A DNA stretch of 64,000 nt, taken from NCBI GenBank assembly GCA_963761425.1, contig CAVXGQ010000004.1:534134-598133 (forward strand), in the 5' to 3' direction. Origin of the DNA: an uncultured Acidimicrobiaceae bacterium. Lineage in GTDB: Bacteria; Actinomycetota; Acidimicrobiia; Acidimicrobiales; Bog-793. The notes beneath the pieces are model-generated. The model made no database searches, was not told the origin of the DNA, and saw only the letters and a program-made list of their open reading frames with translations. Below, in pieces: positions 35,813-53,684 of this stretch. The translations under genes were made by a program, and so were the position numbers. Position 1 is the stretch's first letter. Every line of letters starts with the position of its first letter.

Positions 35813-36586
35813 ATGCTTGTCGCTCTCGCCGTGGGCCTGGGCCTATTCGGCCTGATCGTGGGATCTTTCCTCAACGTCGTCATCTACCGAGTGCCCCGTG
35901 ACGAATCGATCGTCGCCCCGCGCTCGCACTGTCCCGCTTGTGGGATGACGATTCGCGCCTTCGACAACATTCCTGTGGTCTCGTACCTGGTGCTCCGGGG
36001 TCGATGCCGCAGCTGCAAAGCATCGATCTCGGTGCGGTACCCCATCGTCGAGCTGTTGACTGCGGGTCTTTTTGCGGGGACTGCGGCCCATTTTGGGTTC
36101 GCCTGGTCGCTGCCGGCCTATGTGGTCTTGGCCGCAGGCCTGCTGACGCTGGCGTCGATCGACCTCGCGGAGAACATTCTGCCGAAAAGGATCGTGTACT
36201 TCGTCACGGTCATCGTCGGCGTGCTCCTCGTTCTCGCCTCGGCAGAGACGGGAGACTGGCACCGACTCGTCATCGGCGTCTGCAGCGCGGCCGCTTGGTT
36301 CGGTTTGTTCTTCGCGATCAATGCTGTAGGTCCGCGATGGCTTGGTTTTGGCGACGTCCGCCTCGTCGGCGTGCTCGGACTCTCGTTGGGCTGGCTCGGT
36401 GTCGGCTATGTCCTTCTGGGTCTTTATTTTGCTGCACTCATCGGTGCGGCGGTTGGCATCGGGTTGATCGTGGCGAAGCGCGGCGGTCTCGCCACGCCGG
36501 TTCCCTTCGGGCCGTTCCTCGCGCTCGGCGCTGAAATTGCCATCTTCGCCGGCTCATCGTTGCTTCGCCCCTTCCACGGCCTTTGA
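35813..36586 (+). CDS. pilD: prepilin peptidase / N-methyltransferase (A24 family)
   Basis: GSFLNVVIYRVP, then the Cys pairs CPACG...CRSC of the N-terminal methyltransferase domain, then A24 peptidase helices with GFGDV and GPFLALGA. Confidence 0.9.
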   Translation: MLVALAVGLGLFGLIVGSFLNVVIYRVPRDESIVAPRSHCPACGMTIRAFDNIPVVSYLVLRGRCRSCKASISVRYPIVELLTAGLFAGTAAHFGFAWSLPAYVVLAAGLLTLASIDLAENILPKRIVYFVTVIVGVLLVLASAETGDWHRLVIGVCSAAAWFGLFFAINAVGPRWLGFGDVRLVGVLGLSLGWLGVGYVLLGLYFAALIGAAVGIGLIVAKRGGLATPVPFGPFLALGAEIAIFAGSSLLRPFHGL

Positions 36587-37398
36587 GGCTGGTCCACGGC
36601 GCGTCGCACGACCCGAGGTCCCAGGAGGGTCGGGGTCGCCGGCGGGATAGTCGGGACCGTGCGGTTCCGAATTGCCGGTTTCTTTCCCATTGGTGGTACC
36701 GGGAGAGATAACCACCGGGCTCGGGTCCAGTCGCAGATCTTCGCTTCACTGGTCCTGACAGCTCCGTCCCGCCGGGAGGGTCGGTTGTGACGATGACTGG
36801 CGCGAGGCGTTGACAATTTGAGTAAAAAGCGAAGGAGCGGGTCGGGCCACCATCGACCGATGATGGCAGTGAGTTCTGCCATCTCACCCAATCCATTCGA
36901 CGAGCCATGCGGAGTACACGCCTGAAACTCTCCCACGCGGAGGGCACAACCGCATTGCAAGCTGGACTGACGAAGCAATTTGAGGCGAGGGACCCTCCAA
37001 CGCAGCAGCCCTGGCCAAGGGCGAACCACCGACCTGGTGAGTTTGGGGACTCACGAGACGTGAGCTGGGCGATCCCGCCGATGCATTCAGACGATGGGGG
37101 GAGCTCGTATTGGCCACGGGTCGATCCCAACTCTTTGCCAGGGGCGTGACACATTCGGGCGTACGGAGAGGCGGGAGGGTGGGGTAGCATTGCGTGGTGT
37201 TTGGGTGGGAACGCTGGACCTGCGAGTCGGAATGACTGCCGCGCTCCACGAAGGCGAGCCCGATGCCGTCATGCGGCAACTCGCGGGCGTCGGTGGATTG
37301 GCGGACGTCAGCTACATATTCAGAGGCTTTAATGGGAGTCTTATCGTGGTGGCTCTCGGGTCGGGCGCTGGTCGTGCTTGCGGACTGGTGAAGTTGCC

Positions 37399-38838: not shown

Positions 38839-39008
38839 GGGCGGAGACGAAGTCCCCGACTGTGTTCGGTGTCCGTGGCTCGGCGGCGCTGGTGACGCGT
38901 GCCGCGAGGCGGCCGCTGGCGGCGCGTCGAACCGCTCCTGCGGGAGTTTTCCAGGCCGATAGTGATGCTCGGTCGGTCATCGAACCGTCGGGGTTCCTGA
39001 GCCGATGA
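38835..39008 (+). CDS. possible 57-aa coupling ORF (weak)
   Basis: Its ATG at 38835 overlaps the upstream stop (ATGA), and its stop at 39006-39008 overlaps the ATG of the giant gene (ATGA). Third-position G+C is moderately high. No motif. It is below the ORF-track size cutoff. Confidence 0.3.
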   Translation: MRAETKSPTVFGVRGSAALVTRAARRPLAARRTAPAGVFQADSDARSVIEPSGFLSR

Positions 39009-42000
39009 GACATCTTTGCCGTTGCCTGACTGCAAGAGGCTCGCTTCGAAGCGATGCTGAACAAACGCGACAGTTGGAGGTTGGCGACACGCTGATCGAG
39101 GTGCTCATTGCGCTCGTCGTGATTGGCGTGGCCGCGCTGTCCCTCCTCCTCGCCTTTTCCACGTCGCTCTGGGGCTCGTCCGACTACCGCAACGTCGCCA
39201 CCATCGACACCGTGCTGAGGACTGCCGCCGAAGAGACGACCAGCCTGCTCCAGCAGCAACCGGCCACCGCCTGGCAAGACTGCAGTGGCGCCTCCGACAT
39301 CAACAGCAGCAATCTTCTCCAACTCCCGAGCGGCTACACGGCGACAATCTCCGCCGAGTACTGGAACAGCACGCCTCCGCCACCGAGCTTCACCTCGACC
39401 TGCGTCCCCAACGCGACGCAACTCGACCTCATCACCGTGACCTATGCGGGGAAGACCTACCAGATCAGCGTCGTTGTCGACGATCCCCTGGCTCGCCCAG
39501 TGGCCCAAGCGGGTGCGTCTTACCAGCTCGTCTTCCTTTCCCAACCGAGCAGCGGTGTCAGCGCATCGGGTCTTTCGCCAACGCCGGTGGTCGCGGTCGA
39601 AGACGATAACGGCAACATCGTCACGACTGACCTGTCGACGGTCAGCCTCGCCATCACCCCGTCGACCAACCTGAGCGACGCGACGCTGTCGCCGAACTGC
39701 TCAGAGAACGAGTTCTACGGAGTGGTCACCTTCGCGAATTGCAGCATTGACAGGGCGGGAATCGGCTACACCCTCACCGCGAGCGATGGCAGTCTCGAGC
39801 CGGCTACGAGTGCTGCCTTCAACATCACACCCGGCCCAGCCAGCCAGCTCGCTTTCACGCCGACCCCGCCCGCCTCGGTCTTCGCCGGAGTCAAGTTCTC
39901 GGTCGTCGTGGCGGAGCAGGACGCCTACGGCAACACCGAGACGGGCGATTCCACCACGACGCTCACCCTTGCCGCTAGTGGCGGAGGATTTTCGTGCACG
40001 AGCCGGCTGACACAAGCAGTCACGGGCGGGGTTGCGACTTTCACCGGTTGTTCCTTCACGAGTGTGAGCACTACCGCTTACACCTTGACGGCCTCCTCCG
40101 GCACGCTGACCCCTGCGACAACTACCACCATGGTCGCGGCGAGCGCGGCCACCCAGCTCGTCTATCTCACCGGATCACAGACCTTCGTCGCGGGTACAGG
40201 GACTGCCGCTGGCTCCGGAGCGGTGATAGTTCAGCTGCAAGACGCCTATGGCAACCCGGTCAACGCTACCGCGGCCGTCGCACTCAGCTTCAGCGGGACT
40301 TCAGGAGTGACCTACATCCCGACGTTCGGGTCGACGACCGCTTGCACGTCCTCGACGTGCCGGATCCCGGCAGGTTCCTCGATCGGGACCTTCTATATGA
40401 CTGACAACGCGGCGAACGGTGCGTCAATCTCCGTCACTACGACCGCGAATGGCCTCAGCACCCCGGCGCAGTCGGAAACGGTCCTGCAGTCGAGCACCTT
40501 CAGCGGTTCGGTGGGGATCAGCTCTCAGAGTGGGGCACTGTCGCCCACCGGCACGGCGACGTACACGATCACCGTGCATAACACCGCCTCGAGCACCCGG
40601 TATATCGAGACGCTCATAAATGGCGTGCCCTCCAGTGCGACGAGCACGCTGGCGCCGACTTCGATCACGTGTGTGCAGATCGCGGGCGGCTCCAGCGCCA
40701 CATGGTCGTTGAGCGTGGTAACGAATGGGAAAACCCCGGCGGTTACCTCGAAGTTCTCGGTCGTCGCAGAAGGTTGGACCACCAGCGGCTGTTCTGGCAC
40801 GTTGGGCGAAGACACCGAGACTTCTGGGACGCTGACCATCACCCCCGGGTCCGAGCACGAGCTCGTGGTCACGACCCAGCCTGCTTCGTCGATCACCGCC
40901 GGCGGGACGGTTTCGCTAAGCGTGGCGGTCGAGGACCTATACGGCAACGTGTTGACCTCGGGCACCGGCTCGACCGACAGCATCCAGGTGGCTCTGTCCT
41001 CTGGCAGCTTCGTCGCTAGCACCACCACGGCGACCGCGTCCTCGGGCGTGGCCAGTTTCAGCGGCCTCGAGATCACCTCGACCGCCGGTTCGCCCTACAC
41101 GATCATTGTCAGTGACACGACTGACACCTCGGTCACCCCGGTGCCGACCAACTCCGTCACTGTCAACCCCGGTCCGGCGAGCCAGCTTGCCTTCACCCCG
41201 GCCACCCCCGGCCCCGGCATGGCGGGGAACCCCATCCCGAGCGTGGCGGTCTCGGCCGAGGACACCTACGGCAACGTGGCGACCTCGGCCAGCGGCTCGG
41301 TGGTCATGTCGATCGCCTCCGGCAGCCCGCAGTCCGGCTTCAACTCCGGGGCGACGACGGTCAGCCTGTCGAGCGGGGTGGCGAGCTTCACCAACCTGGT
41401 AGTCGACACCTCGGGGAGCTACACCTTTACCGCGAAGCCGAGCAGGATCAGCGGGGTGACCGCGGCGGTCAACTCCAACGCCTTCACCGTGAGCAGCTCG
41501 TCCACGGTGAACTCGTTGGCCATCACGACCATCCCGTCGGAGACCGCCGGGTCGGGCTTCACCGTCACGGCCACGGCGAAGGACGCCTTCGGCAACGTGG
41601 CGAACAACTCGGTGGACTCGGTGACCTTGAGCATCGTGTCGGGCAGCCCGCAGACGACGTTTTCCAACAACGGCTCGACCACCATGACGACGACGCTGTC
41701 CTCCGGTGTGGCCACCTTCCCGGCGGTGGCCTTCGACACCGCTGGCCCTAACTACACGCTGTCGGCTGAGGACACCTCGGCGAACGAAACGGCGCCCAAT
41801 TCCAACGCCTTCACCGTCCGCCCGGCGGCGGCCAGCCAGCTCGCCTTCACTACCCAGCCGGTGGGGGGCGTCACCGAGGGCACCAACTTCGGCACCTCGC
41901 CGGCCGTCTCGGTGGAGGACACCTACGGCAACGTGGTGACCACCGACACCGGCCACGTCACCCTGGCGACCTACTCGGGGCCGTCGGCGGCGGCCCTTAG

Positions 42001-45000
42001 CTGTTCGAACACCGGCTTCCCGACCATCTCGGCGGTGGCGGGGGTGGCCACCTTCACCAACTGCAAGATCACCGGGACGGCGGCGGCCGGGACCTACACC
42101 CTGAGCGCCAGCCGCACCGGCCTCACCCAGGCCGTCTCGGGCAACGTGGTGATCAACCCCGGTGCGGCCAGCCAGCTCGCCTTCACCCCGGCCACCCCCG
42201 GTCCGGGTGTGGCGGGGAGCGTGATCCCGAGCGTGGCGGTCTCGGCCGAGGACACCTACGGCAACGTGGCGACCTCGGCCAGCGGCTCGGTGGTCATGTC
42301 GATCGCCTCGACCGACCCGCAGACCAGCTTCACCTCCGGGACGACGACGGTCAGCCTGTCGAGCGGGGTGGCGAGCTTCACCAACCTGGTAGTCGACACC
42401 TCGGGGAGCTACACCTTTACCGCTACCCCGAGTGGGATCAGCGGGGTGACCGCGGCGGTCAACTCCAATGCCTTCACCGTCAGCGGATCGCCCACGGTGA
42501 ACTCGTTGGCCATCACGACCATCCCGTCGGAGACCGCCGGGTCGGGCTTCACCGTCACGGCCACGGCGAAGGACGCCTTCGGCAACGCGGCGCACAACTC
42601 GGTGGACTCGGTGACCTTGAGCATCGTGTCGGGCAGCCCGCAGACGACGTTTTCCAACAACGGCTCGACCACCATGACGACGACGCTGTCCTCCGGTGTG
42701 GCCACCTTCTCGGCGGTGGCCTTCGACACCGCCGGCTCCTACACGCTGTCGGCCAAGGACACCTCGGCGAGCGTGACGGCGCCCAACTCCAACGCCTTCA
42801 CCGTCCGCCCGGCGGTGGCGAGCCAGCTCGCCTTCACCACCCAGCCGGTGGGAGGCGTCACCGAGGGCACCAACTTCGGCACCTCGCCGGCCGTCTCGGT
42901 GGAGGACACCTACGGCAACGTGGTGACCACCGACACCGGCCACGTCACCCTGGCGAAGAGCACGGGGCCGGCGGCGGGGGCCCTTAGCTGTTCGAACACC
43001 GGCTTCCCGACCATCTCGGCGGTGGCGGGGGTGGCCACCTTCACCAACTGCCAGATCACCGGGACGGCGGCGGCCGGGACCTACACCCTGAGCGCCAGCC
43101 GCACTGGCCTCACCCAGGCCGTCTCGGGCAACGTGGTGATCAACCCCGGTGCGGCCAGCCAGCTCGCCTTCACCCCGGCCACCCCCGGTCCGGGTGTGGC
43201 GGGGAGCGTGATCCCGAGCGTGGCGGTCTCGGCCGAGGACACCTACGGCAACGTGGCGACCTCGGCCAGCGGCTCGGTGGTCATGTCGATCGCCTCCGGC
43301 AGCCCGCAGTCCGGCTTCAACTCCGGGGCGACGACGGTGGCCCTGGCTAGCGGGGTGGCGAGCTTCACCAACCTGGTAGTCGACACCTCGGGGAGCTACA
43401 CCTTTACCGCTACCCCGAGTGGGATCAGCGGGGTGACCGCGGCGGTCAACTCCAATGCCTTCACCGTCAGCGGATCGCCCACGGTGGCCTCGCTGGCCAT
43501 CACGACCATCCCGTCGGAGACCGCCGGGTCGGGCTTCACCGTCACGGCCACGGCGAAGGACGCCTTCGGCAACGCGGCGCACAACTCGGTGGACTCGGTG
43601 ACCTTGAGCATCGTGTCGGGCAGCCCGCAGACGACGTTTTCCAACAACGGCTCGACCACCATGACGACGACGCTGTCCTCCGGTGTGGCCACCTTCTCGG
43701 CGGTGGCCTTCGACACCGCCGGCTCCTACACGCTGTCGGCCAAGGACACCTCGGCGAGCGTGACGGCGCCCAACTCCAACGCCTTCACCGTCAGCCCGGC
43801 GGTGGCGAGCAAGCTCGCCTTCACCACCCAGCCGGTGGGAGGGGTCACCGAGGGCACCAACTTCGGCACCTCGCCGGCCGTCTCGGTGGAGGACACCTAC
43901 GGCAACGTGGTGACCACCGACACCGGCCACGTCACCCTGGCGAAGAGCACGGGGCCGGCGGCGGGGGCCCTTAGCTGTTCGAACACCGGCTTCCCGACCA
44001 TCTCGGCGGTGGCGGGGGTGGCCACCTTCACCAACTGCCAGATCACCGGGACGGCGGCGGCCGGGACCTACACCCTGAGCGCCAGCCGCACCGGCCTCAC
44101 CCAGGCCGTCTCGGGCAACGTGGTGATCAACCCCGGGGCGGCCAGCCAGCTCGCCTTCACCACCCAGCCGGTGGGAGGGGTCACCGAGGGCACCAACTTC
44201 GGCACCTCGCCGGCCGTCTCGGTGGAGGACACCTACGGCAACGTGGTGACCACCGACACCGGCCACGTCACCCTGGCGACCTACTCGGGGCCGTCGGCGG
44301 GGGCCCTTAGCTGTTCGAACACCGGCTTCCCGACCATCTCGGCGGTGGCGGGGGTGGCCACCTTCACCAACTGCCAGATCACCGGGACGGCGGCGGCCGG
44401 GACCTACACCCTGAGCGCCAGCCGCACCGGCCTCACCCAGGCCGTCTCGGGCAACGTGGTGATCAACCCCGGGGCGGCCAGCAAGCTCGCCTTCACCACC
44501 CAGCCGGTGGGAGGGGTCACCGAGGGCACCAACTTCGGCACCTCGCCGGCCGTCTCGGTGGAGGACACCTACGGCAACGTGGTGACCACCGACACCGGCC
44601 ACGTCACCCTGGCGAAGAGCACGGGGCCGGCGGCGGGGGCCCTTAGCTGTTCGAACACCGGCTTCCCGACCATCTCGGCGGTGGCGGGGGTGGCCACCTT
44701 CACCAACTGCCAGATCACCGGGACGGCGGCGGCCGGGACCTACACCCTGAGCGCCAGCCGCACCGGCCTCACCCAGGCCGTCTCGGGCAACGTGGTGATC
44801 AACGTCGGGGCGGCCAGCCAGCTCGCCTTCACCACCCAGCCGGTGGGAGGGGTCACCGAGGGCACCAACTTCGGCACCTCGCCGGCCGTCTCGGTGGAGG
44901 ACACCTACGGCAACGTGGTGACCACCGACACCGGCAACGTCACCCTGGCGTACTACTCGGGGCCGGCGGCGGGGGCCCTTAGCTGTTCGAACACCGGCTT

Positions 45001-46525
45001 CCCGACCATCTCGGCGGTGGCGGGGGTGGCCACCTTCACCAACTGCCAGATCACCGGGACGGCGGCGGCCGGGACCTACACCCTGAGCGCCAGCCGCACT
45101 GGCCTCACCCAGGCCGTCTCGGGCAACGTGGTGATCAACCCCGGGGCGGCCAGCAAGCTCGCCTTCACCACCCAGCCGGTGGGAGGGGTCACCGAGGGCA
45201 CCAACTTCGGCACCTCGCCGGCCGTCTCGGTGGAGGACACCTACGGCAACGTGGTGACCACCGACACCGGCCACGTCACCCTGGCGAAGAGCACGGGGCC
45301 GGCGGCGGGGGCCCTTAGCTGTTCGAACACCGGCTTCCCGACCATCTCGGCGGTGGCGGGGGTGGCCACCTTCACCAACTGCCAGATCACCGGGACGGCG
45401 GCGGCCGGGACCTACACCCTGAGCGCCAGCCGCACCGGCCTCACCCAGGCCGTCTCGGGCAACGTGGTGATCAACCCCGGGGCGGCCAGCCAGCTCGCCT
45501 TCACCACCCAGCCGGTGGGAGGGGTCACCGAGGGCACCAACTTCGGCACCTCGCCGGCCGTCTCGGTGGAGGACACCTACGGCAACGTGGTGACCACCGA
45601 CACCGGCCACGTCACCCTGGCGACCTACTCGGGGCCGTCGGCGGGGGCCCTTAGCTGTTCGAACACCGGCTTCCCGACCATCTCGGCGGTGGCGGGGGTG
45701 GCCACCTTCACCAACTGCCAGATCACCGGGACGGCGGCGGCCGGGACCTACACCCTGAGCGCCAGCCGCACCGGCCTCACCCAGGCCGTCTCGGGCAACG
45801 TGGTGATCAACCCCGGTGCGGCCAGCCAGCTCGCCTTCACCCAGTCGCCGGCGAACACGGGTGTTGGTGTGGCGTTCGCCACTCAACCCGCAGTGGCGGT
45901 GGAGGACAGCTACGGCAACGTGGTGACGACGAACACGTCAACGGTGACTCTCGCCATCACGGCGGGCACGCCCACTTCGGGTGGCCCAGGGACGCTGACG
46001 TGCACGGGCGGTCTGAGCAAGGGGGCGTCCGCTGGCATCGCCACCTTCGCGGGATGTTCGATCAGCACCGAGGGCGCTAATTACGAACTCCATGCCACGG
46101 ACGGGTCCCTGGTGGCTGCCAACAGCAGTGCCTTTAACGTGTTCAGCTCGGGCACGTACTCGGGGAGCAGCGGCACAAGCGATATTCCCAGTTCCGCCAC
46201 GTATTACGGGATCAACGCCTCTTCCGCCGGGTCGGGTACTTCCACGAACAACACCATCACGCCGGGTGTGGGCGAGACCCTGACCGGCCTGACGTTCACC
46301 ATCAATCGCACCAGCACGACGAGCCACACGGCCACGGTGGGGATCGTTACGAGCGGGGTCTGGGCTGCGACGGCGCTCACGTGCACTATTACCGGGGGTT
46401 CAGGCTTGACGAGCTGCACGATCACCGCCAACGTGAGCGTCTCGGCGACGCAGTCGATCAACATTCAAGCCGTAGGAAACGGGACCCGCACCGGAACGTG
46501 GACGACGACCTACACACAGCCGTAG
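39005..46525 (+). CDS. giant pilin-like surface protein: prepilin-type N-terminus + about 19 Ig-like domains + unique C-terminal domain (2,506 aa)
   Basis: N-terminus ...QLEVG DTLIEVLIALVVIGVAALSLLLAF (Gly-1, Glu+5, hydrophobic helix). An alternative TTG start at 39074 would give a 4-aa leader. There are 19 copies of the domain pattern [QKE]L[AV][FV]...P.V.V.D.[YFN]GN...G[VI]A[TS]F...Y.L[ST]A. No LPXTG motif. Confidence 0.85.
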   Translation: MRHLCRCLTARGSLRSDAEQTRQLEVGDTLIEVLIALVVIGVAALSLLLAFSTSLWGSSDYRNVATIDTVLRTAAEETTSLLQQQPATAWQDCSGASDINSSNLLQLPSGYTATISAEYWNSTPPPPSFTSTCVPNATQLDLITVTYAGKTYQISVVVDDPLARPVAQAGASYQLVFLSQPSSGVSASGLSPTPVVAVEDDNGNIVTTDLSTVSLAITPSTNLSDATLSPNCSENEFYGVVTFANCSIDRAGIGYTLTASDGSLEPATSAAFNITPGPASQLAFTPTPPASVFAGVKFSVVVAEQDAYGNTETGDSTTTLTLAASGGGFSCTSRLTQAVTGGVATFTGCSFTSVSTTAYTLTASSGTLTPATTTTMVAASAATQLVYLTGSQTFVAGTGTAAGSGAVIVQLQDAYGNPVNATAAVALSFSGTSGVTYIPTFGSTTACTSSTCRIPAGSSIGTFYMTDNAANGASISVTTTANGLSTPAQSETVLQSSTFSGSVGISSQSGALSPTGTATYTITVHNTASSTRYIETLINGVPSSATSTLAPTSITCVQIAGGSSATWSLSVVTNGKTPAVTSKFSVVAEGWTTSGCSGTLGEDTETSGTLTITPGSEHELVVTTQPASSITAGGTVSLSVAVEDLYGNVLTSGTGSTDSIQVALSSGSFVASTTTATASSGVASFSGLEITSTAGSPYTIIVSDTTDTSVTPVPTNSVTVNPGPASQLAFTPATPGPGMAGNPIPSVAVSAEDTYGNVATSASGSVVMSIASGSPQSGFNSGATTVSLSSGVASFTNLVVDTSGSYTFTAKPSRISGVTAAVNSNAFTVSSSSTVNSLAITTIPSETAGSGFTVTATAKDAFGNVANNSVDSVTLSIVSGSPQTTFSNNGSTTMTTTLSSGVATFPAVAFDTAGPNYTLSAEDTSANETAPNSNAFTVRPAAASQLAFTTQPVGGVTEGTNFGTSPAVSVEDTYGNVVTTDTGHVTLATYSGPSAAALSCSNTGFPTISAVAGVATFTNCKITGTAAAGTYTLSASRTGLTQAVSGNVVINPGAASQLAFTPATPGPGVAGSVIPSVAVSAEDTYGNVATSASGSVVMSIASTDPQTSFTSGTTTVSLSSGVASFTNLVVDTSGSYTFTATPSGISGVTAAVNSNAFTVSGSPTVNSLAITTIPSETAGSGFTVTATAKDAFGNAAHNSVDSVTLSIVSGSPQTTFSNNGSTTMTTTLSSGVATFSAVAFDTAGSYTLSAKDTSASVTAPNSNAFTVRPAVASQLAFTTQPVGGVTEGTNFGTSPAVSVEDTYGNVVTTDTGHVTLAKSTGPAAGALSCSNTGFPTISAVAGVATFTNCQITGTAAAGTYTLSASRTGLTQAVSGNVVINPGAASQLAFTPATPGPGVAGSVIPSVAVSAEDTYGNVATSASGSVVMSIASGSPQSGFNSGATTVALASGVASFTNLVVDTSGSYTFTATPSGISGVTAAVNSNAFTVSGSPTVASLAITTIPSETAGSGFTVTATAKDAFGNAAHNSVDSVTLSIVSGSPQTTFSNNGSTTMTTTLSSGVATFSAVAFDTAGSYTLSAKDTSASVTAPNSNAFTVSPAVASKLAFTTQPVGGVTEGTNFGTSPAVSVEDTYGNVVTTDTGHVTLAKSTGPAAGALSCSNTGFPTISAVAGVATFTNCQITGTAAAGTYTLSASRTGLTQAVSGNVVINPGAASQLAFTTQPVGGVTEGTNFGTSPAVSVEDTYGNVVTTDTGHVTLATYSGPSAGALSCSNTGFPTISAVAGVATFTNCQITGTAAAGTYTLSASRTGLTQAVSGNVVINPGAASKLAFTTQPVGGVTEGTNFGTSPAVSVEDTYGNVVTTDTGHVTLAKSTGPAAGALSCSNTGFPTISAVAGVATFTNCQITGTAAAGTYTLSASRTGLTQAVSGNVVINVGAASQLAFTTQPVGGVTEGTNFGTSPAVSVEDTYGNVVTTDTGNVTLAYYSGPAAGALSCSNTGFPTISAVAGVATFTNCQITGTAAAGTYTLSASRTGLTQAVSGNVVINPGAASKLAFTTQPVGGVTEGTNFGTSPAVSVEDTYGNVVTTDTGHVTLAKSTGPAAGALSCSNTGFPTISAVAGVATFTNCQITGTAAAGTYTLSASRTGLTQAVSGNVVINPGAASQLAFTTQPVGGVTEGTNFGTSPAVSVEDTYGNVVTTDTGHVTLATYSGPSAGALSCSNTGFPTISAVAGVATFTNCQITGTAAAGTYTLSASRTGLTQAVSGNVVINPGAASQLAFTQSPANTGVGVAFATQPAVAVEDSYGNVVTTNTSTVTLAITAGTPTSGGPGTLTCTGGLSKGASAGIATFAGCSISTEGANYELHATDGSLVAANSSAFNVFSSGTYSGSSGTSDIPSSATYYGINASSAGSGTSTNNTITPGVGETLTGLTFTINRTSTTSHTATVGIVTSGVWAATALTCTITGGSGLTSCTITANVSVSATQSINIQAVGNGTRTGTWTTTYTQP
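41182..45825 (+). repeat. in-frame near-identical tandem array: three ~990-nt three-domain units followed by five 336-nt single-domain units
   Basis: The landmark CCAGCT(C/T)GCCTTCACC recurs at 41182, 42172, 43159 and 44146 (periods 990, 987, 987). Within 44138-45818 the repeat start recurs every 336 nt (44138, 44474, 44810, 45146, 45482, 45818). Copies differ at only a few positions by eye. Confidence 0.9.
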
Positions 46526-46604
46526 CCGGGGTACTGAAAGATGAGCAGAAGATAGTCATGGCCGAAACGTTGGTTGTGGAGGTCTTGGAGGCGCGAAAGG
46601 CGAT

Positions 46605-48221
46605 TTGGTGACGGAGAGTCCAAGAACAGGGTTCCACATCGCTGGACTTCGCACGGGACGCGCAGTTCGGCCCGGACGCGGTGGAGAACACGACGAACCG
46701 GGTGCGATCCTGGTTCTGGCGCTTGTCTTCCTGCTGGTGGGAACCGTTGTTGTCGGTGCGCTGGTGAGCGCGCTGACGAATGACCTCAACAACTCGAACA
46801 CCTTCCAGTCGGTCCGGTCTCTCCAGTACGCGGCCCGGAGCGCGACCGATTTCGCGATCCAGAGCATCCGCTACACCCCGTTGCTGTCGACGTCCCAGAC
46901 ACTGAACGCCAGCCCGCCGAACTACTGCTGGGGGAGCGGTCCGGTCTCCACGTTCCAGACGATTGACGGCGTATCTGGGATGACGGTGTGGTGCAGCACG
47001 GTTTGGAACCCGACGAGTGCTGAGACCCGGGTCGTGACCTTCTCGACCTGCCTACTGCCCAGCAACCTGGCGAGCTACCAGGACGCTGCCGCTCAGTGCG
47101 AGCAGAATCCGTTCCTCCAGGCTGTGGTCACCTTTGATGACTACCCTCCGGGCATCAGCGCGCCGACGACCGCGGAGTGCGTGGTGTACTGCGGCGCGAG
47201 CATGGCCGTGAACAGCTGGGTGTGGTCGCCGGTGGTCCCGATCGTCACGGGGATCAGCCCCGGTTCTGGTCCGATCACCGGTAGCACGCCTAGCACGCCG
47301 TTGACCATCACCATCACGGGGACTGGGTTTGTGGCCGGAGCCGCCGTCAACTTTATCGAGGAATCTGGCGGTGTCCCGGCCAGCGACAACGTGGTGTTGT
47401 CGGTGCCTGCCGCGAACGTGACGGTGAACGGACCTGGTTCGATCGCGGTCCTCGCACCGGCGGCAACCGAGGGGTCCACTTACTACGTCACCGTGACGAC
47501 ATCGACGGGAACCAGCGCCTACAGCACCAACGACGTGTTCACGTATTCCCCTGTCGCCCCGACCGTCGCGGGGATCAGTCCTAATTCGGGATTGATCGGC
47601 GGGGGCAACGCGGTGACCATCACGGGAACCGGGTTCTTGAACGACGCGACCGTCAATTTCATCGAGGAGTCGGGCGGCTACCCGGTCTTGCCGACGGTGA
47701 GCGTTCCGGCCACCTACGTGTCGGTGACCAGTTCGACTTCTATCACCACAGTCTCGCCGCCCGTATCCGCCACGGGAACCTATTTCGTCACCGTCACGAC
47801 CTCGGATGGCACCTACACGCCGACCCCGGGAACGGTCTGCCCGTCTCCGCTGCTGGCGGGCACGCAGTGTGACACCTTCTCGTATGGGACGTTGACCCCG
47901 ACCATCTCCTCCATCACTCCGCTGTCTGGCTCGGTGCATGGCGGCACGGCGGTGACGGTCACTGGGGTCGGATTCGTGTCTGGGAACACCGTCACCTTTG
48001 TTAAGTTCTCCGGCCTGGATTCGAACGGCAACCCCATCACGACCGGTTATTCAGCCAATGCGTCTTCCGTAACGGTGAACGAATCAGGCGTCACGGGCAC
48101 TTCGACGATGACCGTCGTCTCGCCGGCGGTGAGCTCTTCGGGGACGTACTACATCGACGTCACGACGTCGCAGGGCACCAGCCTCTACAGCGGTGCCCCT
48201 GATGTCTTCACTTATTCGTAG
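46605..48221 (+). CDS. pilus-associated protein: PilX_N/TadG-like N-terminal hydrophobic segment + three IPT/TIG domains
   Basis: The N-terminus ...EHDEPGAILVLALVFLLVGTVVVGALVSAL resembles PilX_N/TadG-type anchors. It carries three repeats of the pattern P.(V/I).(G/S)I(S/T)P.SG...GG..VTITGTGF......V.F.........V.V.S...I....P......TYYV.V.T..G.S.....D.F(T/S)Y, which is IPT/TIG-like. Confidence 0.7.
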   Translation: MVTESPRTGFHIAGLRTGRAVRPGRGGEHDEPGAILVLALVFLLVGTVVVGALVSALTNDLNNSNTFQSVRSLQYAARSATDFAIQSIRYTPLLSTSQTLNASPPNYCWGSGPVSTFQTIDGVSGMTVWCSTVWNPTSAETRVVTFSTCLLPSNLASYQDAAAQCEQNPFLQAVVTFDDYPPGISAPTTAECVVYCGASMAVNSWVWSPVVPIVTGISPGSGPITGSTPSTPLTITITGTGFVAGAAVNFIEESGGVPASDNVVLSVPAANVTVNGPGSIAVLAPAATEGSTYYVTVTTSTGTSAYSTNDVFTYSPVAPTVAGISPNSGLIGGGNAVTITGTGFLNDATVNFIEESGGYPVLPTVSVPATYVSVTSSTSITTVSPPVSATGTYFVTVTTSDGTYTPTPGTVCPSPLLAGTQCDTFSYGTLTPTISSITPLSGSVHGGTAVTVTGVGFVSGNTVTFVKFSGLDSNGNPITTGYSANASSVTVNESGVTGTSTMTVVSPAVSSSGTYYIDVTTSQGTSLYSGAPDVFTYS

Positions 48222-48445
48222 CACCCTTTTCGCGGACGGGTAGTCGCCTCATCCGCGGACCATTGCCGGGAAGGCATCCCCGCAGGCGGTGATGGTCACA
48301 CTGGACCTCAATTACTCCTTCGGAGCCAGTTCGGAGCGCGCCCGGGCTGGTCGGGAGCCTCCGAGGATGCGAGGTCGGTGATCGCGCCGTTGGCTGGCGA
48401 TCGGAAGTTCAAGTAGTCGTCGTGCCGCAGAGGCGGAGGCGCCGC

Positions 48446-49519: not shown

Positions 49520-49550
49520 GTGTCTAGTAGAGCTTCATCGGAGACCCGCG

Positions 49551-49588
49551 TCAAAGACCGAAAGGGGCCCGGCGACATGCCGGACCCC
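49551..49588 (-). terminator. intrinsic terminator downstream of pilA
   Basis: The minus-strand RNA reads GGGGUCCGGC-AUGUC-GCCGGGCCCC (10-bp stem with one G-U pair) followed by UUUCGGUCUUU. It lies 35 nt after the pilA stop, before pilT. Confidence 0.55.
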
Positions 49589-49623
49589 TCGGTCCTCGAT
49601 CTGAGATCGGAGCAGGTACGCCG

Positions 49624-50142
49624 TTAGGTGACCGTGTTGCAGACGTCCGCGCCGGCAGTAACGCTGGTGTCGTAGTTGGTCCAAGTAGCCGGGGTTGCGG
49701 CCCCCGCGTCGGTATGGGCAGTGCTCACCCAGACCTGGCCCGGCGACACGCCAGCCACGTCCACGCCCGCCGTGACGCCGGCAGAGGTCTCGTAGCGGAC
49801 ACCGGTCTCGCCGCTAATCACGATACCGATGTAGTAGTGGGTGCTGTTACTCGGCCAGGAGCGCAAGGCCTTAGTGGTCCCGACGAGATCCGCGATCGAT
49901 CCCGGAAAGGCGCCGCCAGAGTTGGTGGCCTGGTAGGCCGCGATTCCGACCTCGACGGTCTTCGCGTCCGTGTTGCACGCCGACTTGGCGCTGGAGCTGG
50001 TGACGCCGCCGAGCGCGAAGACGACGACGGCGGCGAGGATGCCCATGATGATGATGACGATGAGGAGTTCGATCAGGGTGAAGCCTTCCTGACCGGACCG
50101 CTCGATGCCTGTTCTACGCATGGTGCGGTAACGACTGAACAT
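49624..50142 (-). CDS. pilA: type IV major pilin
   Basis: The leader ends ...GQEG followed by FTLIELLIVIIIMGILAAVVVFAL (canonical class III signal, Glu+5). 172 aa with two Cys residues. AAAGGAA lies 9 nt upstream of the ATG. Confidence 0.88.
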   Translation of the reverse strand: MFSRYRTMRRTGIERSGQEGFTLIELLIVIIIMGILAAVVVFALGGVTSSSAKSACNTDAKTVEVGIAAYQATNSGGAFPGSIADLVGTTKALRSWPSNSTHYYIGIVISGETGVRYETSAGVTAGVDVAGVSPGQVWVSTAHTDAGAATPATWTNYDTSVTAGADVCNTVT

Positions 50143-50182
50143 GTCGGCTAGTTCCTTTCTTCAGATCGATGGCCCTAACTCA

Positions 50183-50204
50183 CTACGAGGGCAGATTAGC
50201 CCTC
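50183..50204 (-). promoter_or_regulatory. 8-bp perfect hairpin in the pilA leader region
   Basis: ACGAGGGC-AGATTA-GCCCTCGT on the + strand, 40-60 nt upstream of the pilA ATG. Confidence 0.4.
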
Positions 50205-50293
50205 GTCATCAATGAGGTCGTCGATTTCGACCCATGCAGGCCAGAAAGAATAGTCAATATGTATCAGCTATGCCTATGGGAGAATGCCGCCTT

Positions 50294-50413
50294 GTCACCG
50301 TGCGTCACGATCCCGACACCACCAGTGGGAAAATATCGCCTCATCTCCAGAGGCCTTGGACGGTGGCTCCTGCGCCGGCGGGTCACCGTGCGACACGATC
50401 TCGACAGCACCAG
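50294..50413. repeat. two 32-nt imperfect direct repeats, 88 nt apart, upstream of pilA
   Basis: GTCACCGTGCGTCACGATCCCGACACCACCAG at 50294..50325 and GTCACCGTGCGACACGATCTCGACAGCACCAG at 50382..50413. 29 of 32 positions are identical. Both carry an internal GTCAC/G(T/A)CAC submotif with 10-nt spacing. Confidence 0.6.
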
Positions 50414-50564
50414 AGCCCCGCAAGTGGCCCGGATTGGCTGCGTCGATTGTCGGAAATTGTGCGTCCCGATCAAGTCACCATCACCGGCATTGATATGGTC
50501 TCGGACGGCGGTTAGAAGCGCCGACGGGCGGGGCGTATTGTTTCCCCGGACGAGATTCCTCGGG

Positions 50565-51773: not shown

Positions 51774-51785
51774 GGACGATCCTGT

Positions 51786-53684
51786 CTACAACGTGTAGAT
51801 GCTGCGGACCACTTCAGACACGGTCGTGATGTCCTGGGTGACCAGATCGATCGCCTGCTCGCGCAGGGTTCGCATGCCTTGCTCTTGGGCCGCGTTGCGG
51901 AGCTCGTCGTGGGTGCTGGCCGCGACGATGAGACGTTTGATCATCGAAGTGACGGCCAGGAGCTCATAGACGCCGATCCGGTCCTGATATCCGGTGTGGG
52001 CGCAGAAGTTGCACCCCTCGCCGTGGTAGAAGTCTTCCTTCTTGGTTCCTTTCGTCTCCTCGTAAAAGGCGAGTTCATCAGGCGTTGGGGTGTAGCGCGT
52101 CTTGCAGGCGGGGCAAATGCGGCGCACCAGCCGTTGGCTCAAGACGGCGATGACCGAGGCGGAGATGAGGAAGGGCTCGATCCCCATGTCGTAGAAGCGG
52201 AGCAACGCGGTGACCGTGTCGGTGGCGTGGAGCGACGAGAGAACCAGGTGACCGGTCATCGCCGATTGCACCGCGATACGTGCCGTCTCGACGTCCCGGA
52301 CCTCACCGACCAGGATGACGTCGGGGTCCTGGCGCAGGATCGACTTGAGTCCGCTCGCAAAGGTCAGGCCCGCCTGTTCGTTCGTCTGGATCTGGTTCAT
52401 GGAGGAAAAGACGTACTCGACGGGATCCTCGATGGTCATGATGTTGCGTGACGGGAGGTTGAGCTCGTTGAGGGTCGCGTAGAGCGTGGTGGTCTTGCCG
52501 CTTCCCGTCGGTCCGGCACAGACGACCATCCCGAACGGAGCGCGGATGACCTCCGAGTAGGACTCGCGGATGTCGGCTGCCATTCCGAGGTGTTCCAGGC
52601 GGAGCACCGACCGGGTCTTGTCGAGGATCCGCATGACGCACTTCTCGCCGAAGATCGTCGCCAGTGTCGAGACGCGCACATCGACCGATTTGTCGTCCAC
52701 GGTCGTGGTGAACTGTCCGTCCTGGGGTCGGCGGCGCTCGACGATGTTCATCCCGGCCATGATCTTGATCCGGTTCACCAGACCGAGGCCCATCGCCGCC
52801 GGGAGCAGGAGCATCTCTTTCATGACCCCGTCGATGCGGTAGCGGACCCGCACCGCGTCTTCCTGCGGCTCGATGTGGACGTCGGACGCCCGGTCACGCA
52901 GCGCCTGGGTGAGGATGCGGGTGACGACCTGGACGACCGGAGCGTCGTCGGCGACGACCTCCAGCTTCGGGGGCTCAGCCCCCCGCCGTCGGACCCCTTC
53001 GATCGACTGGAACACCTGGACGAGGGTGGTGACGCCCCCCAGAGCGCCGTAGTTGCTGTCGATCGCCTGGCGGATGTCGCTCACCGGCACGATCATGAGC
53101 TGCACCTCGTGCCGGGTGGTCTTTTCGAGAAGCTCCTGAAGCTCCTCGCTCGGTTCGGCGACGGCGATGAAGACGATGTTGCCGCTCAATGAGACCGGGA
53201 GCACGAGCTGCGCCCTGGCGATCTCCTCGGGAACGAGTTCGAGCGCTTCTTTCTGCGGGATCTGCGTCCGCAGATCGCACTCGGGCATATCGAACTTCCA
53301 CGCCAGCGCGTCGACGAGACCGCGCTCGCCAAGGACCCCCATGTCGACCAGGATCTGCCCGAGGCGGCCGCCGGATTCGCGCTGCTTCGCCAGCGCCTCG
53401 TTGACCTGCTCCTCGGTGACGAGGCCCCGACCGACGAGGAGATCGCCGAGCCGGAGTGCCATTTTGTCGGCGACGTCGTGCACGCCGAGGCGGACGATCT
53501 CTCCGAGTCCGTCCCCTCGGAGAAGGCCGTTCCCCTCCATTCCGACCGTCGAGTACGGCAGGCTGAGGTCGCTCCACGGCAGCGCCCCGGACTCGGCCGG
53601 CGCCTCGGGTGGCGGCGCGGGCTCCGCACCGTCGACCTCGACGCGCTGGGACGAGTGGGCGCGGTCACCACGTCGGAGTCTCAC
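51786..53684 (-). CDS. pilB: type IV pilus assembly ATPase (GspE/PilB family)
   Basis: T2SSE_N-like region LGDLLVGRGLVTEEQVNEALAKQ. Walker A GPTGSGKTTT, TIEDPVEY and RQDPDVILVGEVRD. Tetracysteine motif CPACK...C..C. The start is uncertain (GTG 53684, ATG 53540 or ATG 53462). Confidence 0.92.
   Translation of the reverse strand: MRLRRGDRAHSSQRVEVDGAEPAPPPEAPAESGALPWSDLSLPYSTVGMEGNGLLRGDGLGEIVRLGVHDVADKMALRLGDLLVGRGLVTEEQVNEALAKQRESGGRLGQILVDMGVLGERGLVDALAWKFDMPECDLRTQIPQKEALELVPEEIARAQLVLPVSLSGNIVFIAVAEPSEELQELLEKTTRHEVQLMIVPVSDIRQAIDSNYGALGGVTTLVQVFQSIEGVRRRGAEPPKLEVVADDAPVVQVVTRILTQALRDRASDVHIEPQEDAVRVRYRIDGVMKEMLLLPAAMGLGLVNRIKIMAGMNIVERRRPQDGQFTTTVDDKSVDVRVSTLATIFGEKCVMRILDKTRSVLRLEHLGMAADIRESYSEVIRAPFGMVVCAGPTGSGKTTTLYATLNELNLPSRNIMTIEDPVEYVFSSMNQIQTNEQAGLTFASGLKSILRQDPDVILVGEVRDVETARIAVQSAMTGHLVLSSLHATDTVTALLRFYDMGIEPFLISASVIAVLSQRLVRRICPACKTRYTPTPDELAFYEETKGTKKEDFYHGEGCNFCAHTGYQDRIGVYELLAVTSMIKRLIVAASTHDELRNAAQEQGMRTLREQAIDLVTQDITTVSEVVRSIYTL

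Follow-up and report, generated by a model that had tools for sequence, protein, structure and literature searches.

Type IVa pili have already been predicted by surveys in Actinobacteria (PMC6668835, PMC6916266) and in Acidimicrobiia (PMC12008989). Of the three minor pilins of Streptococcus sanguinis, PilA is GspI-like, PilB has a vWA module, and PilC bears Ig-like and lectin modules; PilC is a binding partner of PilA, and the minor pilins were proposed by the authors to cap the pilus (PMC8179133, PMC9934059). PilM, PilN and PilO were reported to be restricted to type IVa pili and to be indispensable in S. sanguinis (PMC6916266). A 2021 survey of modular pilins in InterPro found more than 1,200 proteins with 264 architectures, the largest noted being a protein of 860 aa from Candidatus Falkowbacteria (PMC8179133).

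The locus described here is an unusual, inherited variant of the known type IV pilus machine. Positions 35813-53684 of the window (the whole stretch of 64,000 nucleotides that was analysed) encode PilD, pilin-like proteins of 479, 2,506 and 538 aa, PilT, a 172-aa major pilin, PilC and PilB (Table 1). The gene layout of the original prediction was borne out, with all named genes in their places; profiles and motifs support a type IV pilus locus of the PilB/PilC/PilD/PilT kind, its major pilin being of normal size, and the presence of three oversized pilin-like genes in it was likewise supported. Judged by the relatives of its proteins, the host is an uncultured peat or soil actinobacterium of the order Acidimicrobiales: enolase in the window shows 84-88% identity to proteins named Acidimicrobiales, the named relatives of the 479-aa pilin are all Acidimicrobiales, and the closest PilT proteins among species-representative genomes are from Acidimicrobiaceae. 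Because of these three relationships, the earlier comparison with relatives of Mycobacterium and their Tad pili was misplaced. The housekeeping backbone assumed around the locus is present at 9-23 kb of the window (prs, pth, mfd, mazG, eno, rpf, ppx), but the immediate neighbours are other genes, namely glycosyltransferase, NlpC/P60, carboxylesterase, MFS transporter, PhoU and decarboxylase genes at one end and, at the other, a DsbD-thioredoxin fusion gene. Two neighbouring window genes are split by frameshifts, which hints at some sequence errors.

Table 1. Features of the pilus locus, with window coordinates
Feature	Position	Strand	Evidence or property
pilD, prepilin peptidase/N-methyltransferase, 257 aa	35813..36586	+	Pfam A24_N_bact 127.9 bits, Peptidase_A24 38.3 bits
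Untranslated spacer, 812 nt, upstream of minor-pilin operon	36587..37398	+	G+C 0.628
First minor pilin, 479 aa	37399..38838	+	prepilin motif G/FTLVE
Second minor pilin, intact 2,506-aa ORF	39005..46525	+	G/DTLIE, predicted folds
Near-identical tandem repeats inside giant gene	41177..45820	+	TRF
Third minor pilin-like protein, 538 aa from TTG start	46605..48221	+	Pfam TIG, E 8.9e-18, three stretches
pilT, retraction ATPase, 357 aa	48446..49519	-	TIGR01420 PilT/PilU family, 443.5 bits
G+C-rich hairpin then UUUCGGUCUUU, 3' of pilA	49554..49596	-	RNA fold -51.5 kcal/mol, z = -3.66 vs shuffles
pilA, major pilin candidate, 172-aa precursor	49624..50142	-	N_methyl 31.5 bits and TIGR02532, above cut-off
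Leader upstream of pilA, 422 nt	50143..50564	-	G+C 0.58
pilC, platform protein, 402 aa	50565..51773	-	T2SSF twice, 185.5 bits
pilB, extension ATPase, 632 aa from GTG start	51786..53684	-	T2SSE 416 bits, MshEN 55.8 bits

Regarding the machine genes, both Pfam matches of PilD exceeded their cut-offs, and the protein was 70% identical to the product of the same-position gene in the relative L087. For PilT (TIGR01420 cut-off 319.1), the best matches among solved relatives were PilT proteins with 315-337 bits, followed by PilU (281) and DotB (117); the protein carries the Walker A sequence GPTGSGKST and ACRALIRE, which resembles the AIRNLIRE motif of PilT proteins. PilB scored 546 bits with TIGR02538 and 537 bits with GspE, both under cut-off, and its best solved relatives were Thermus PilF and the PilB proteins of Geobacter and Myxococcus. 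PilT grouped with other PilT proteins, and PilB fell into the PilB/GspE group; neither joined the competence or Tad ATPases. The N-terminal MshEN c-di-GMP-binding motif of PilB (aa 77-130, nt 53295-53456) scored 66.5 bits with the c-di-GMP motif NF053729 (cut-off 38), and a doubled RLGxxLVxxG... motif with a spacer of 5 residues is visible; the true start of pilB is probably downstream of the GTG. The best profile score of PilC was that of GspF; its identity reached 47-86% against the 80 metagenome loci and dropped to about 30% against the PilC proteins of common actinobacterial pilus loci. The pilA product has a 21-residue leader followed by G/FTLIELLIV, and the position of pilA between pilC and pilT is kept in relatives.

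By profile and predicted model, the 479-aa protein, which is identical to a product on record for the source contig, is a GspJ/PilW-like pilin module with a C-terminal CshA_NR2-like adhesin domain. The model (pLDDT 78) has a helix at residues 31-85 and then beta-sheet; its structural matches were weak, the top pilin matches in Foldseek being XcpW/EpsJ (probability about 1, E 2.5e-3, target TM about 0.5). The C-terminal 279 aa matched PF18651 CshA_NR2 with 36.7 bits (cut-off 24), and a weak NCBIfam match to the polysaccharide-secretion pseudopilin HpsC was also obtained. The family comprises at least 527 clusters, the 120 listed having lengths of 342-558 aa.

The 2,506-aa protein starts with a pilin module (aa 1 to about 170), continues with about 20 Ig-like domains and ends in a C-terminal domain of about 130 aa. 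Its G/DTLIE motif is invariant across the family; the predicted cleavage would leave Asp as the first residue, an uncommon start for a methylated pilin. A profile of the pilin module aligned GDTLIEVL to GFTLIELL of a Geobacter pilin (E 0.003), and the model shows a helix at 29-83, a small sheet at 111-158 and then tandem Ig-like domains. The fold search was dominated by Ig-like matches, the array matching S-layer proteins (best SbsC, SbsB and Sap), titin and invasin. Nineteen D/E-x-Y/F-G-N motifs occur at a spacing of 106-112 aa, except for one gap of 231 aa. The repeats are arranged as three super-units of about 987 nt (41177-44140, 94-98% identity) and then five units of 336 nt (44141-45820, 95.5-99.7% identity); TRF reported a period of 336 with 6.1 copies and 97% matches. 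The copy number could be an assembly estimate. For the pilin module 919 relatives were found, with lengths of 97-2,684 aa, and 44 of the best 150 family representatives exceed 1,000 aa (longest 2,684 aa). Complete copies of the second gene in related loci encode between 171 aa, the bare pilin, and 1,310 aa, and across the family its product spans 171 to about 2,700 aa.

The 538-aa protein has a hydrophobic N-terminus (G/AILVL) without Glu5, a globular domain and three IPT/TIG stretches, and yielded an NCBIfam CoaZ repeat match. Its start is uncertain and its length is counted from TTG. PilX_N matched only weakly (E 0.05-0.1); in the family, 9 of 18 members matched at E <= 1, the best at 0.0048. 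In all three large pilin-like proteins the N_methyl and PilX_N Pfam scores were under cut-off. Homologues of the third protein measure 514-721 aa in the subgroup of the window and 166-275 aa, with no TIG, in a distant subgroup. Since the second gene ranges from 171 aa upward and the third lacks TIG in that subgroup, the comparison suggests that surface modules were added to a plain ancestor.

A 22-nt motif, TTTCCCAYTGGTGGTRYCGGGA, occurs in the 812-nt spacer (36683-36704) and in the pilA leader (50311-50332) and nowhere else, with a chance expectation of 0. No Rfam match was obtained for the spacer, and none at E <= 1 for the leader. A 102-aa ORF inside the spacer lacks a GC3 signal and has no homologue. 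The 57-aa ORF at 38835-39008 (G+C at codon positions 1/2/3 of 0.67/0.67/0.71), which lacks conservation in relatives, looks non-coding. The terminator predicted after pilA corresponds to a strong hairpin, likely a terminator or attenuator, which was missed by a simple terminator scan because its T run is interrupted.

In dozens of metagenome loci from peat and soil, the three large-pilin genes occur together as a conserved minor-pilin operon. Conservation of this unit and its linkage to pilB/C/T are supported by L002, L083, L085, L087 and more than 20 metagenome loci; in L083 the three genes are without pilB/C/T within 10 kb, and in one subgroup they lie directly behind pilT on the same strand. 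Relatives hold the locus with equally large pilins, not ordinary small minor pilins, and it is therefore a trait of the lineage and not an oddity of one genome. Neither PilM/N/O nor a secretin was present among the predicted genes of the window, as originally noted, and PilM/N/O profiles run against all six reading frames of the entire window found nothing. These profiles gave no match in the window and 89 related loci (1.05 Mb); on 75 other type IV pilus loci they detected PilM in 28, PilN in 19 and PilO in 15. GspL/M, GspC and a PilY1 homologue were not found at the locus. The absence of a secretin is expected because the bacterium has a single membrane; with PilM/N/O not near the locus, the machine may work in a different mode or need genes located elsewhere.

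We consider it reasonably probable that the locus encodes a native type IVa-like retractile pilus whose three minor pilins act as a modular priming complex and adhesin at the tip. PilD would process the prepilins, PilB and PilC would assemble the 172-aa PilA into a filament, with PilB probably switched on by c-di-GMP via its MshEN domain, and PilT would retract it. The genes at 37399-48221 would be the core minor pilins of this lineage, most likely forming a complex at the filament tip that corresponds to the I/J/K (PilV/W/X) priming complex. Each would be a small pilin module, plugged into the filament, that has gained surface modules: a CshA_NR2-like lectin-fold domain in the first, a stalk built from about 20 Ig-like domains plus a terminal domain in the second, and three IPT/TIG stretches in the third. 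If extended, the stalk would measure roughly 70-80 nm (assuming about 3.5-4 nm per Ig-like domain), and recombination between near-identical repeats could change its length. The pilus would then be a retractable line with a multi-part adhesin tip, and the adhesive role proposed originally is reasonable. Points against the tip model are the Asp at the predicted cleavage site of the giant pilin, the N_methyl and PilX_N scores under cut-off, the weak structural matches of the first protein, the lack of PilM/N/O nearby and the need for an appendage of 2,300 residues to cross the cell wall at the pilus tip.

Several observations would also fit surface display or secretion, in which the prepilin signal would serve only for PilD processing and anchoring in the membrane or a short pseudopilus: the S-layer matches of the Ig-like arrays, the HpsC match of the first protein, the GspF-like score of PilC and the almost equal GspE score of PilB, the arrangement in L083 and the lack of PilM/N/O nearby. 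The three proteins would then form an adhesin or fibril layer on the cell, like archaeal bindosome proteins or secretion pseudopili, with PilA, PilB, PilC and PilT separate or helping. We regard this as rather unlikely, considering that the three genes adjoin pilB/C/T in more than 20 loci (directly behind pilT in one subgroup), that PilT is encoded alongside a normal major pilin, that the second and third genes of distant relatives code for minor pilins of the ordinary kind (170-275 aa), as would suit a priming complex, and that secretin, GspL/M and GspC were not found.

It is improbable that the giant size is partly an artefact of mis-assembled near-identical repeats, the real gene being much shorter. 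The repeats are 94-99.7% identical across 4.6 kb, the contigs of L087, L086 and L002 end inside the giant gene, and the frameshift-split neighbours point in the same direction; however, the ORF is open for 7.5 kb, independent assemblies gave lengths of 1,882 aa (L085) and at least 1,324, 1,241 and 1,025 aa, many family representatives exceed 1,000 aa, and about 960 residues are left once the roughly 1,550 residues of the 4.6-kb repeat block are subtracted.

Regarding composition, total G+C was 0.60-0.65 over most of 36-53 kb compared with about 0.70 in the flanks, a dip which also occurs at the pilus locus of relatives and is due to Thr/Ser-rich proteins and long spacers. First-codon-position G+C was 0.557 in the locus and 0.712 in the flanks, with the remaining dip in spacers, whereas pooled GC3 was 0.860 and 0.864, respectively. 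The claimed preference for A/T-ending codons held for pilD (GC3 0.75) and the 479-aa gene (0.73), about 2 SD under the flank mean (0.851 +/- 0.050, range 0.74-0.92), and to some extent for the giant gene outside its repeats (0.80; repeats 0.96) and the 538-aa gene (0.80), but not for pilT, pilC and pilB (0.87-0.90), which resembled the flanks. Overall, synonymous sites do not differ from the flanks, which argues against acquisition. In L087 the left flank has the same genes in unchanged order (75-88% aa identity), after which come pilD, a homologue of the 479-aa pilin and a giant pilin, and the right flank beside pilB is common to L085 and the window. The locus is thus native and not a recent import, and the horizontally acquired adhesion island in a Mycobacterium-like backbone suggested originally is largely refuted and most improbable: the total G+C, the low GC3 of two genes, a tRNA-Leu 5 kb upstream and rearrangement of the locus between relatives are outweighed by the flank-like GC3, the shared site and recurrent dip in relatives, the synteny of the tRNA region in L087, the common assignment of housekeeping and pilus genes to Acidimicrobiales and the absence of integrase or transposase genes from the flanks.

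Compared with known systems, the common actinobacterial and monoderm type IVa loci (for example L012-L063 from Solirubrobacterales, Gaiellaceae and Actinomycetes) belong to the same phylum and likewise cluster pilB, pilT, pilC and pilD with pilins of 150-170 aa, but their identity to the window is only about 30% (PilC) and about 40% (PilB), and they often have the pilM/N/O genes lacking from the window type. The compact loci L004-L006 (Nocardioides jensenii, a Nocardioides MAG and Amycolatopsis vancoresmycina) share the machine subtype (identities of 56-58% for PilT, 52-53% for PilB and 44-49% for PilC) and also lack pilM/N/O. The gene order is pilA-pilT-pilB-pilC, pilin-like genes, pilD in L004 and L005, with pilD on the opposite strand in L006. 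L004 encodes a large PilX-like protein (716 aa) but has only two pilin-like genes called after pilC, the first of 277 aa; the three loci have no Ig-like giant and belong to another class of Actinomycetota.

The GspH/I/J/K and FimU/PilV/W/X priming complexes, which belong to type II secretion and to diderm type IVa pili, are similar in having consecutive genes, a J-like first protein here and a K/PilX-like member without Glu5, and plain versions of 170-275 aa occur in distant relatives of the locus. They differ in that only three members are present here, with no H/FimU counterpart seen, in gene order (here J-like, putative I-like, K-like), and in the large C-terminal additions and the missing PilY1 partner. 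The PilY1/PilC adhesins of diderm type IVa pili are analogous as large modular tip adhesins dependent on a minor-pilin complex, but PilY1 is a non-pilin with a beta-propeller, whereas here adhesin domains are fused straight onto pilin modules.

The S. sanguinis type IVa pilus shares a single-membrane host, a PilB/C/D/T-type machine and exactly three minor pilins with adhesin domains on pilin modules, including Ig-like and lectin-fold domains, proposed at the tip. Its cluster holds the essential pilM/N/O; here all three minor pilins carry extra modules, the sequences are unrelated, PilB has an MshEN c-di-GMP motif, and the giant pilin with its Ig-like array contrasts with an S. sanguinis PilC of about 50 kDa. 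As in the surveyed modular pilins, a pilin module at the N-terminus is joined to non-pilus domains, and CarboxypepD_reg-like and lectin-type modules recur, but the family here reaches 2,000-2,700 aa, about three times the largest noted there (PMC8179133). A search keyed on the N_methyl signature would probably miss the giant-pilin family because its N-termini score under the N_methyl cut-off. The locus extends the known idea of the modular pilin.

The gene layout of the original prediction was reproduced by the ORF list and by domain scans, and the 479-aa and 2,506-aa products are matched exactly in sequence by NCBI and ENA records of a 599,729-bp contig. Of the 57-aa ORF between the first and second pilin-like genes the reading frame is present, but a coding signature and homologues are absent. 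Like the 102-aa ORF in the spacer behind pilD, it has no GC3 signal and no homologue in relatives, and both were treated as non-coding. A strong hairpin lies 3' of pilA. No riboswitch or other known RNA was detected in the long leaders by an Rfam search over 35.0-54.5 kb (no match at E <= 1); tRNA-Leu is the sole RNA gene found in the whole window (Rfam, gathering threshold). A sigma-70 promoter scan returned no site, and such a scan is uninformative for a high-G+C actinobacterium.

Features of the pilus locus and its surroundings (positions in the window)
Feature	Position	Strand	Remarks
tRNA-Leu	30753-30827	+	anticodon TAA
arginase/agmatinase-family gene, C-terminal half	33164-33778	-
arginase/agmatinase-family gene, N-terminal half	33408-34169	-
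PLP-dependent decarboxylase, two pieces	34159-34437, 34527-35543	-
pilD	35813-36586	+	prepilin peptidase; both A24 domains
spacer	36587-37398		812 nt
22-nt motif, copy 1	36683-36704	+	in spacer before minor-pilin operon
102-aa ORF	37094-37402		in spacer
first gene, 479-aa pilin-like	37399-38838	+	G↓FTLVE
57-aa ORF	38835-39008
second (giant) gene, 2,506 aa	39005-46525	+
residues 27-32 of giant protein	39083-39100		predicted mature N-terminus
repeats of giant gene	41177-45820		super-units and units
third gene, 538 aa	46605-48221	+	three IPT/TIG stretches
pilT	48446-49519	-
pilA	49624-50142	-	G↓FTLIE
leader	50143-50564		422 nt
22-nt motif, copy 2	50311-50332	-	in pilA leader
pilC	50565-51773	-
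pilB	51786-53684	-
DsbD-thioredoxin fusion gene	54021-55730	-	569 aa

The 22-nt motif TTTCCCAYTGGTGGTRYCGGGA occurs exactly twice in the 64 kb (chance expectation 0), and both copies are oriented alike with respect to the pilin gene downstream of them. A shared regulatory site is possible; the motif is missing from the loci of relatives, in L085-L088 (comparison loci) even with five mismatches allowed.

The retractile PilB/PilC/PilD machine with PilT, as originally proposed, was borne out by domain, model and PDB matches. PilT exceeds the cut-off of the curated PilT/PilU model TIGR01420 (443.5 bits, cut-off 319.1), has PilT structures as its top PDB matches and contains a Walker A motif as well as the motif ACRALIRE, which resembles the AIRNLIRE motif of PilT proteins. 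PilB carries a T2SSE domain (416 bits), and over its full length the closest solved relatives are Thermus PilF and the PilB proteins of Geobacter and Myxococcus. Residues 77-130 of PilB contain the doubled motif RLGDLLVGRGLVTEEQVNEALAKQ-RESGG-RLGQILVDMGVLGERGLVDALAWKF, of the RLGxxLVxxG... type with a spacer of five residues, and the N-terminus passes the curated MshE-related c-di-GMP-binding model NF053729 (66.5 bits, cut-off 38). The MshEN motif is a doubled 24-residue RLGxx(L/V/I)(L/V/I)xxG(L/V/I)(L/V/I)xxxxLxxxLxxQ with about five residues between the copies; a c-di-GMP receptor domain of this type is predicted for PilB. PilC has two T2SSF domains (185.5 bits). PilA is a pilin of normal size with a 21-residue leader and the sequence G↓FTLIELLIV, above cut-off for both N_methyl and TIGR02532; long pilin leaders are described as typical for single-membrane bacteria (PMC6916266). 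Directly adjoining pilB is a gene for a fusion of a DsbD/CcdA-type membrane domain and thioredoxin-like domains. As the pilin-like proteins contain many invariant cysteines, a link of this fusion to disulfide handling is conceivable; the gene is missing beside pilB in L085.

The first minor pilin (G↓FTLVE) was modelled (pLDDT 78) as a long N-terminal helix followed by a sheet, and its top pilin matches in Foldseek were the GspJ-type pseudopilins XcpW and EpsJ (probability 0.93-1.0, E 2.5e-3 to 5e-2, target TM 0.45-0.55). The C-terminal 279 residues pass Pfam CshA_NR2, a streptococcal adhesin domain (36.7 bits, cut-off 24). The family of this gene comprises at least 527 clusters, of which the 120 listed are 342-558 aa long and 46-76% identical. 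N_methyl matches stay below the Pfam cut-off in the 479-aa protein (20.1 bits) and in the 2,506-aa protein (14 bits). Pilin N-termini under the standard cut-off bear on annotation of the family; some sources leave these pilins unnamed or label them "hypothetical protein" or "PulG pseudopilin".

The N-terminal 170 residues of the giant second protein form a pilin module, modelled as a helix (residues 29-83) and a small sheet; the module profile matches pilin alpha-1 (E 0.003). G↓DTLIE is invariant in the family, and the predicted mature N-terminus is thus an invariant Asp (alignments A3 and A4 of the family). At the mature N-terminus of pilins, normally an N-methylated residue, Phe or Met is usual and Asp is unusual. 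Behind the module follow 19 D/E-x-Y/F-G-N motifs, spaced by 106-112 aa except for one gap of 231 aa that holds a different domain, and the protein ends in a C-terminal domain of about 130 aa. The two domains that were modelled are tandem Ig-like folds, and Ig-like matches dominate a fold search with the N-terminus of the protein. The repeat region consists of three super-units of about 987 nt and five units of 336 nt that are 94-99.7% identical, which points to a recent expansion by recombination. When the pilin module by itself was used in an exhaustive search, 919 representative proteins were recovered; in all but one of the 150 listed representatives the module lies at or near the N-terminus. 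Total lengths range from 97 to 2,684 aa; among the best 150, 44 are longer than 1,000 aa.

Regarding the third protein, the N-terminus throughout the family reads G↓A-x-L-x-L-A-L-x-F, with no Glu at position +5, as in GspK/PilX-type minor pilins. A weak match to PilX_N recurs in the family (9 of 18 members, always below the cut-off); a PDB sequence search with a profile of the N-terminal domain returned only a spurious designed protein. The three IPT/TIG stretches match TIG (E 9e-18). With a class III signal peptide and a pilin module, the 479-aa and 2,506-aa proteins would qualify, in sequence and model, as modular pilins, and the extra domains predicted behind the pilin module (CshA_NR2, tandem Ig-like, TIG) are of non-pilus type.

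The three large genes are conserved as a unit of minor pilins. They occur together and in the same order in the comparison loci L083 (506, 373 and 551 aa), L082 and L101, and co-occur in more than 20 of 80 metagenome loci that were recovered with PilC; in L085 the third gene is on the opposite strand, and of the three genes the fetched stretch of L002 covers no more than the third and the end of a giant repeat gene. Across related loci of both subgroups the first gene encodes 439-822 aa. In the distant subgroup (PilC about 50-55% identical) the second gene encodes 171-1,310 aa, with several plain pilins of 171-203 aa, and the third 166-275 aa without TIG; the corresponding ranges in the subgroup of the window are 1,000-2,500 aa and 514-721 aa. 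This series from plain to giant is the pattern expected from a stepwise addition of adhesin modules onto an ordinary set of core minor pilins. A DUF429 (PF04250) gene of about 240 aa adjoins pilT or the third gene in 41 related loci (e.g., L002 11071-11793 and L112 8332-9051); the window has no such gene, and none was detected in its closest relatives. An accessory role in this pilus subtype, so far uncharacterised, is conceivable.

The mechanism considered most likely is that of a pilus with an adhesive tip. PilB, responding to c-di-GMP, and PilC would extend the PilA filament; the three minor pilins would prime it and stay at the tip, where they would expose a lectin-fold domain, a stalk of Ig domains with a length of tens of nm, and TIG domains; PilT would retract the filament. 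We infer tip location, complex formation, ligand and regulation. The main rival explanation places the large pilin-like proteins on the cell surface or in a short pseudopilus, independent of the PilA filament. In the metagenome loci the three genes converge on pilB-pilC-pilA-pilT or sit directly behind pilT on the same strand. In L083 they stand alone (12940-18338), with the trp operon and argH on either side; a complete rRNA operon (5S, 23S, 16S) comes immediately afterwards, and there is no pilB, pilC or pilT within 10 kb of them.

Other classes of filament fared less well. Regarding type II secretion, the GspE model (537 bits) scores just behind the best NCBIfam model for PilB, which is TIGR02538 PilB (546 bits, below the equivalog cut-off of 676), and is likewise below its cut-off; the best model for PilC is GspF (310 bits), followed by the Myxococcus-type PilC (266 bits), neither reaching its cut-off. 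Neither a secretin nor GspL/M was found among the predicted genes of the window, and PilT is present. In model scores and nearest structures, PilT sides with PilT proteins and PilB with the group of PilB and GspE, and neither sides with competence ATPases; a place of the ATPases among type II secretion or competence systems had been named by the original prediction as counting against it. A competence (Com) pilus is disfavoured by ComGA (258 bits) and ComGB (137 bits), far under PilB/GspE and GspF, and by PilT. A Tad/Flp (type IVc) pilus is dismissed by a TadA-family score of 34-38 bits (cut-off 373), a single PilC with two T2SSF domains instead of paired TadB/TadC, a 172-aa GFTLIE pilin and the presence of PilT. 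PilB, PilC, PilT, the major pilin and PilD all have the sequence features by which the locus would be assigned to type IVa.

The PilM-PilN-PilO sub-complex is stated to be specific for type IVa and essential in S. sanguinis (PMC6916266). Its absence from the window, noted originally by eye, was confirmed with profiles in all six frames. When 134 neighbouring ORFs of 14 window-type loci (relatives of the pilus locus) were scanned in bulk against Pfam, PilM, PilN and PilO were not listed; the families that recurred were N_methyl, T2SSF, T2SSE, A24 peptidase and, as a surprise, DUF429 (9 ORFs). As a positive control, the same scan of 14 ordinary actinobacterial pilus loci gave six ORFs for PilM, four for PilN and three for PilO. 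Custom profiles built from these control proteins had no match in the window and in 89 window-type loci (1.05 Mb, six frames), and matched in 28 (PilM), 19 (PilN) and 15 (PilO) of 75 other loci. The same machine subtype was found in compact loci of Nocardioides and Amycolatopsis, one of which (L004) is arranged as pilA-pilT-pilB-pilC-pilin-PilX-like-pilD. At the loci examined, the subtype is consistently without linked pilM/N/O. A PilT-containing system with no PilM/N/O nearby would be a natural test of a minimal machine for extension and retraction.

Regarding the host, the housekeeping backbone is present (prs, pth, mfd, mazG, eno, rpf and ppx at 9-23 kb), but the suggested kinship with Mycobacterium did not hold. 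Enolase shares 84-88% identity with proteins listed under Acidimicrobiales by NCBI, every named relative of the 479-aa pilin belongs to Acidimicrobiales or Acidimicrobiia, and the closest PilT proteins among species-representative genomes are from Acidimicrobiaceae MAGs (67% and 63%); the host is therefore an uncultured member of the Acidimicrobiales and no relative of Mycobacterium. The claim of an excess of A/T-ending codons stood in part: GC3 is about 2 SD low only in pilD (0.75) and in the gene of the 479-aa pilin (0.73), both still at the margin of what the flanks show, but pooled GC3 is 0.860 in the locus versus 0.864 in 35 flanking genes. Total G+C drops to 0.60-0.65 over much of the locus and is 0.58-0.63 in the long spacers; GC1 is 0.557 versus 0.712 in the flanks, because the proteins contain 17.6% Thr and 13.6% Ser.

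The left flank recurs in the comparison locus L087 in the same order and with 75-88% amino acid identity (acetyltransferase, NlpC/P60, carboxylesterase, MFS transporter, PhoU, decarboxylase), followed by pilD (70%), a homologue of the 479-aa pilin (50%) and a giant pilin, which runs into the contig end after 1,025 aa or more. L085 has the right flank in common with the window (75-86%), beside pilB (78%), and has homologues of all three large genes in rearranged order: third (60%), first (56%) and giant (1,882 aa, 54% over 1,606 aa). The flanks yielded neither an integrase nor a transposase. These shared flanks, the equal composition at synonymous sites and the missing mobility genes speak against the horizontal acquisition that had been suggested, and the pilus locus is judged from them to be native. 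The surface proteins evolve much faster than the flanking genes. The tRNA-Leu gene, 5 kb upstream of pilD, separates the carboxylesterase gene from that of the MFS transporter; the gene order around it is kept in L087 and no integrase is nearby.

Two genes upstream of pilD, of the arginase/agmatinase family and for a PLP-dependent decarboxylase, are split across frames and are either pseudogenes or the result of sequencing indels; in L087 the decarboxylase is intact (455 aa) and the agmatinase-like piece is missing. A homologue of the decarboxylase (50% over 274 aa) lies just upstream of the pilus locus in L004 (7275-8630), from a Nocardioides MAG of another class of Actinomycetota, which may be a coincidence or a conserved neighbourhood.

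It is possible, if on balance doubtful, that these loci represent a separate type IV filament subtype of Acidimicrobiales and some Actinomycetes, in which PilB/C/D/T work without any PilM/N/O and the whole three-protein priming complex has been turned into a compound adhesin, its pilin-anchored stalks of Ig domains (1,000-2,700 residues) among the parts and varying in length by repeat recombination. In this reading the pilus would be a retractable grappling line, gated by c-di-GMP and common among actinobacteria of peat and soil. Proteins of this size raise the question of how a bulky tip is assembled and passes through a Gram-positive-type wall. Peat, bog and soil metagenomes contain the family in abundance, in an uncultured lineage of Acidimicrobiales for which the pilus may be a main means of attachment.

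Earlier predictions of type IVa pili exist for Actinobacteria (PMC6668835, PMC6916266) and for Acidimicrobiia (PMC12008989); a limited literature search found no published description of the giant-pilin family. The closest experimental precedent for the system of the window is the pilus of S. sanguinis with its three minor pilins, the GspI-like PilA, the vWA-bearing PilB and the Ig-plus-lectin-bearing PilC, of which PilA binds PilC and which were proposed by the authors to cap the pilus (PMC8179133, PMC9934059). The concept of modular pilins has been described before, and the most extreme one noted in a 2021 survey has 860 aa (PMC8179133). New here are the extra modules on all three core minor pilins, the systematic absence of pilM/N/O from the loci of the subtype, and the scale, which at 2,506 aa in the window and a family maximum of about 2,700 aa is roughly threefold above that of the survey.
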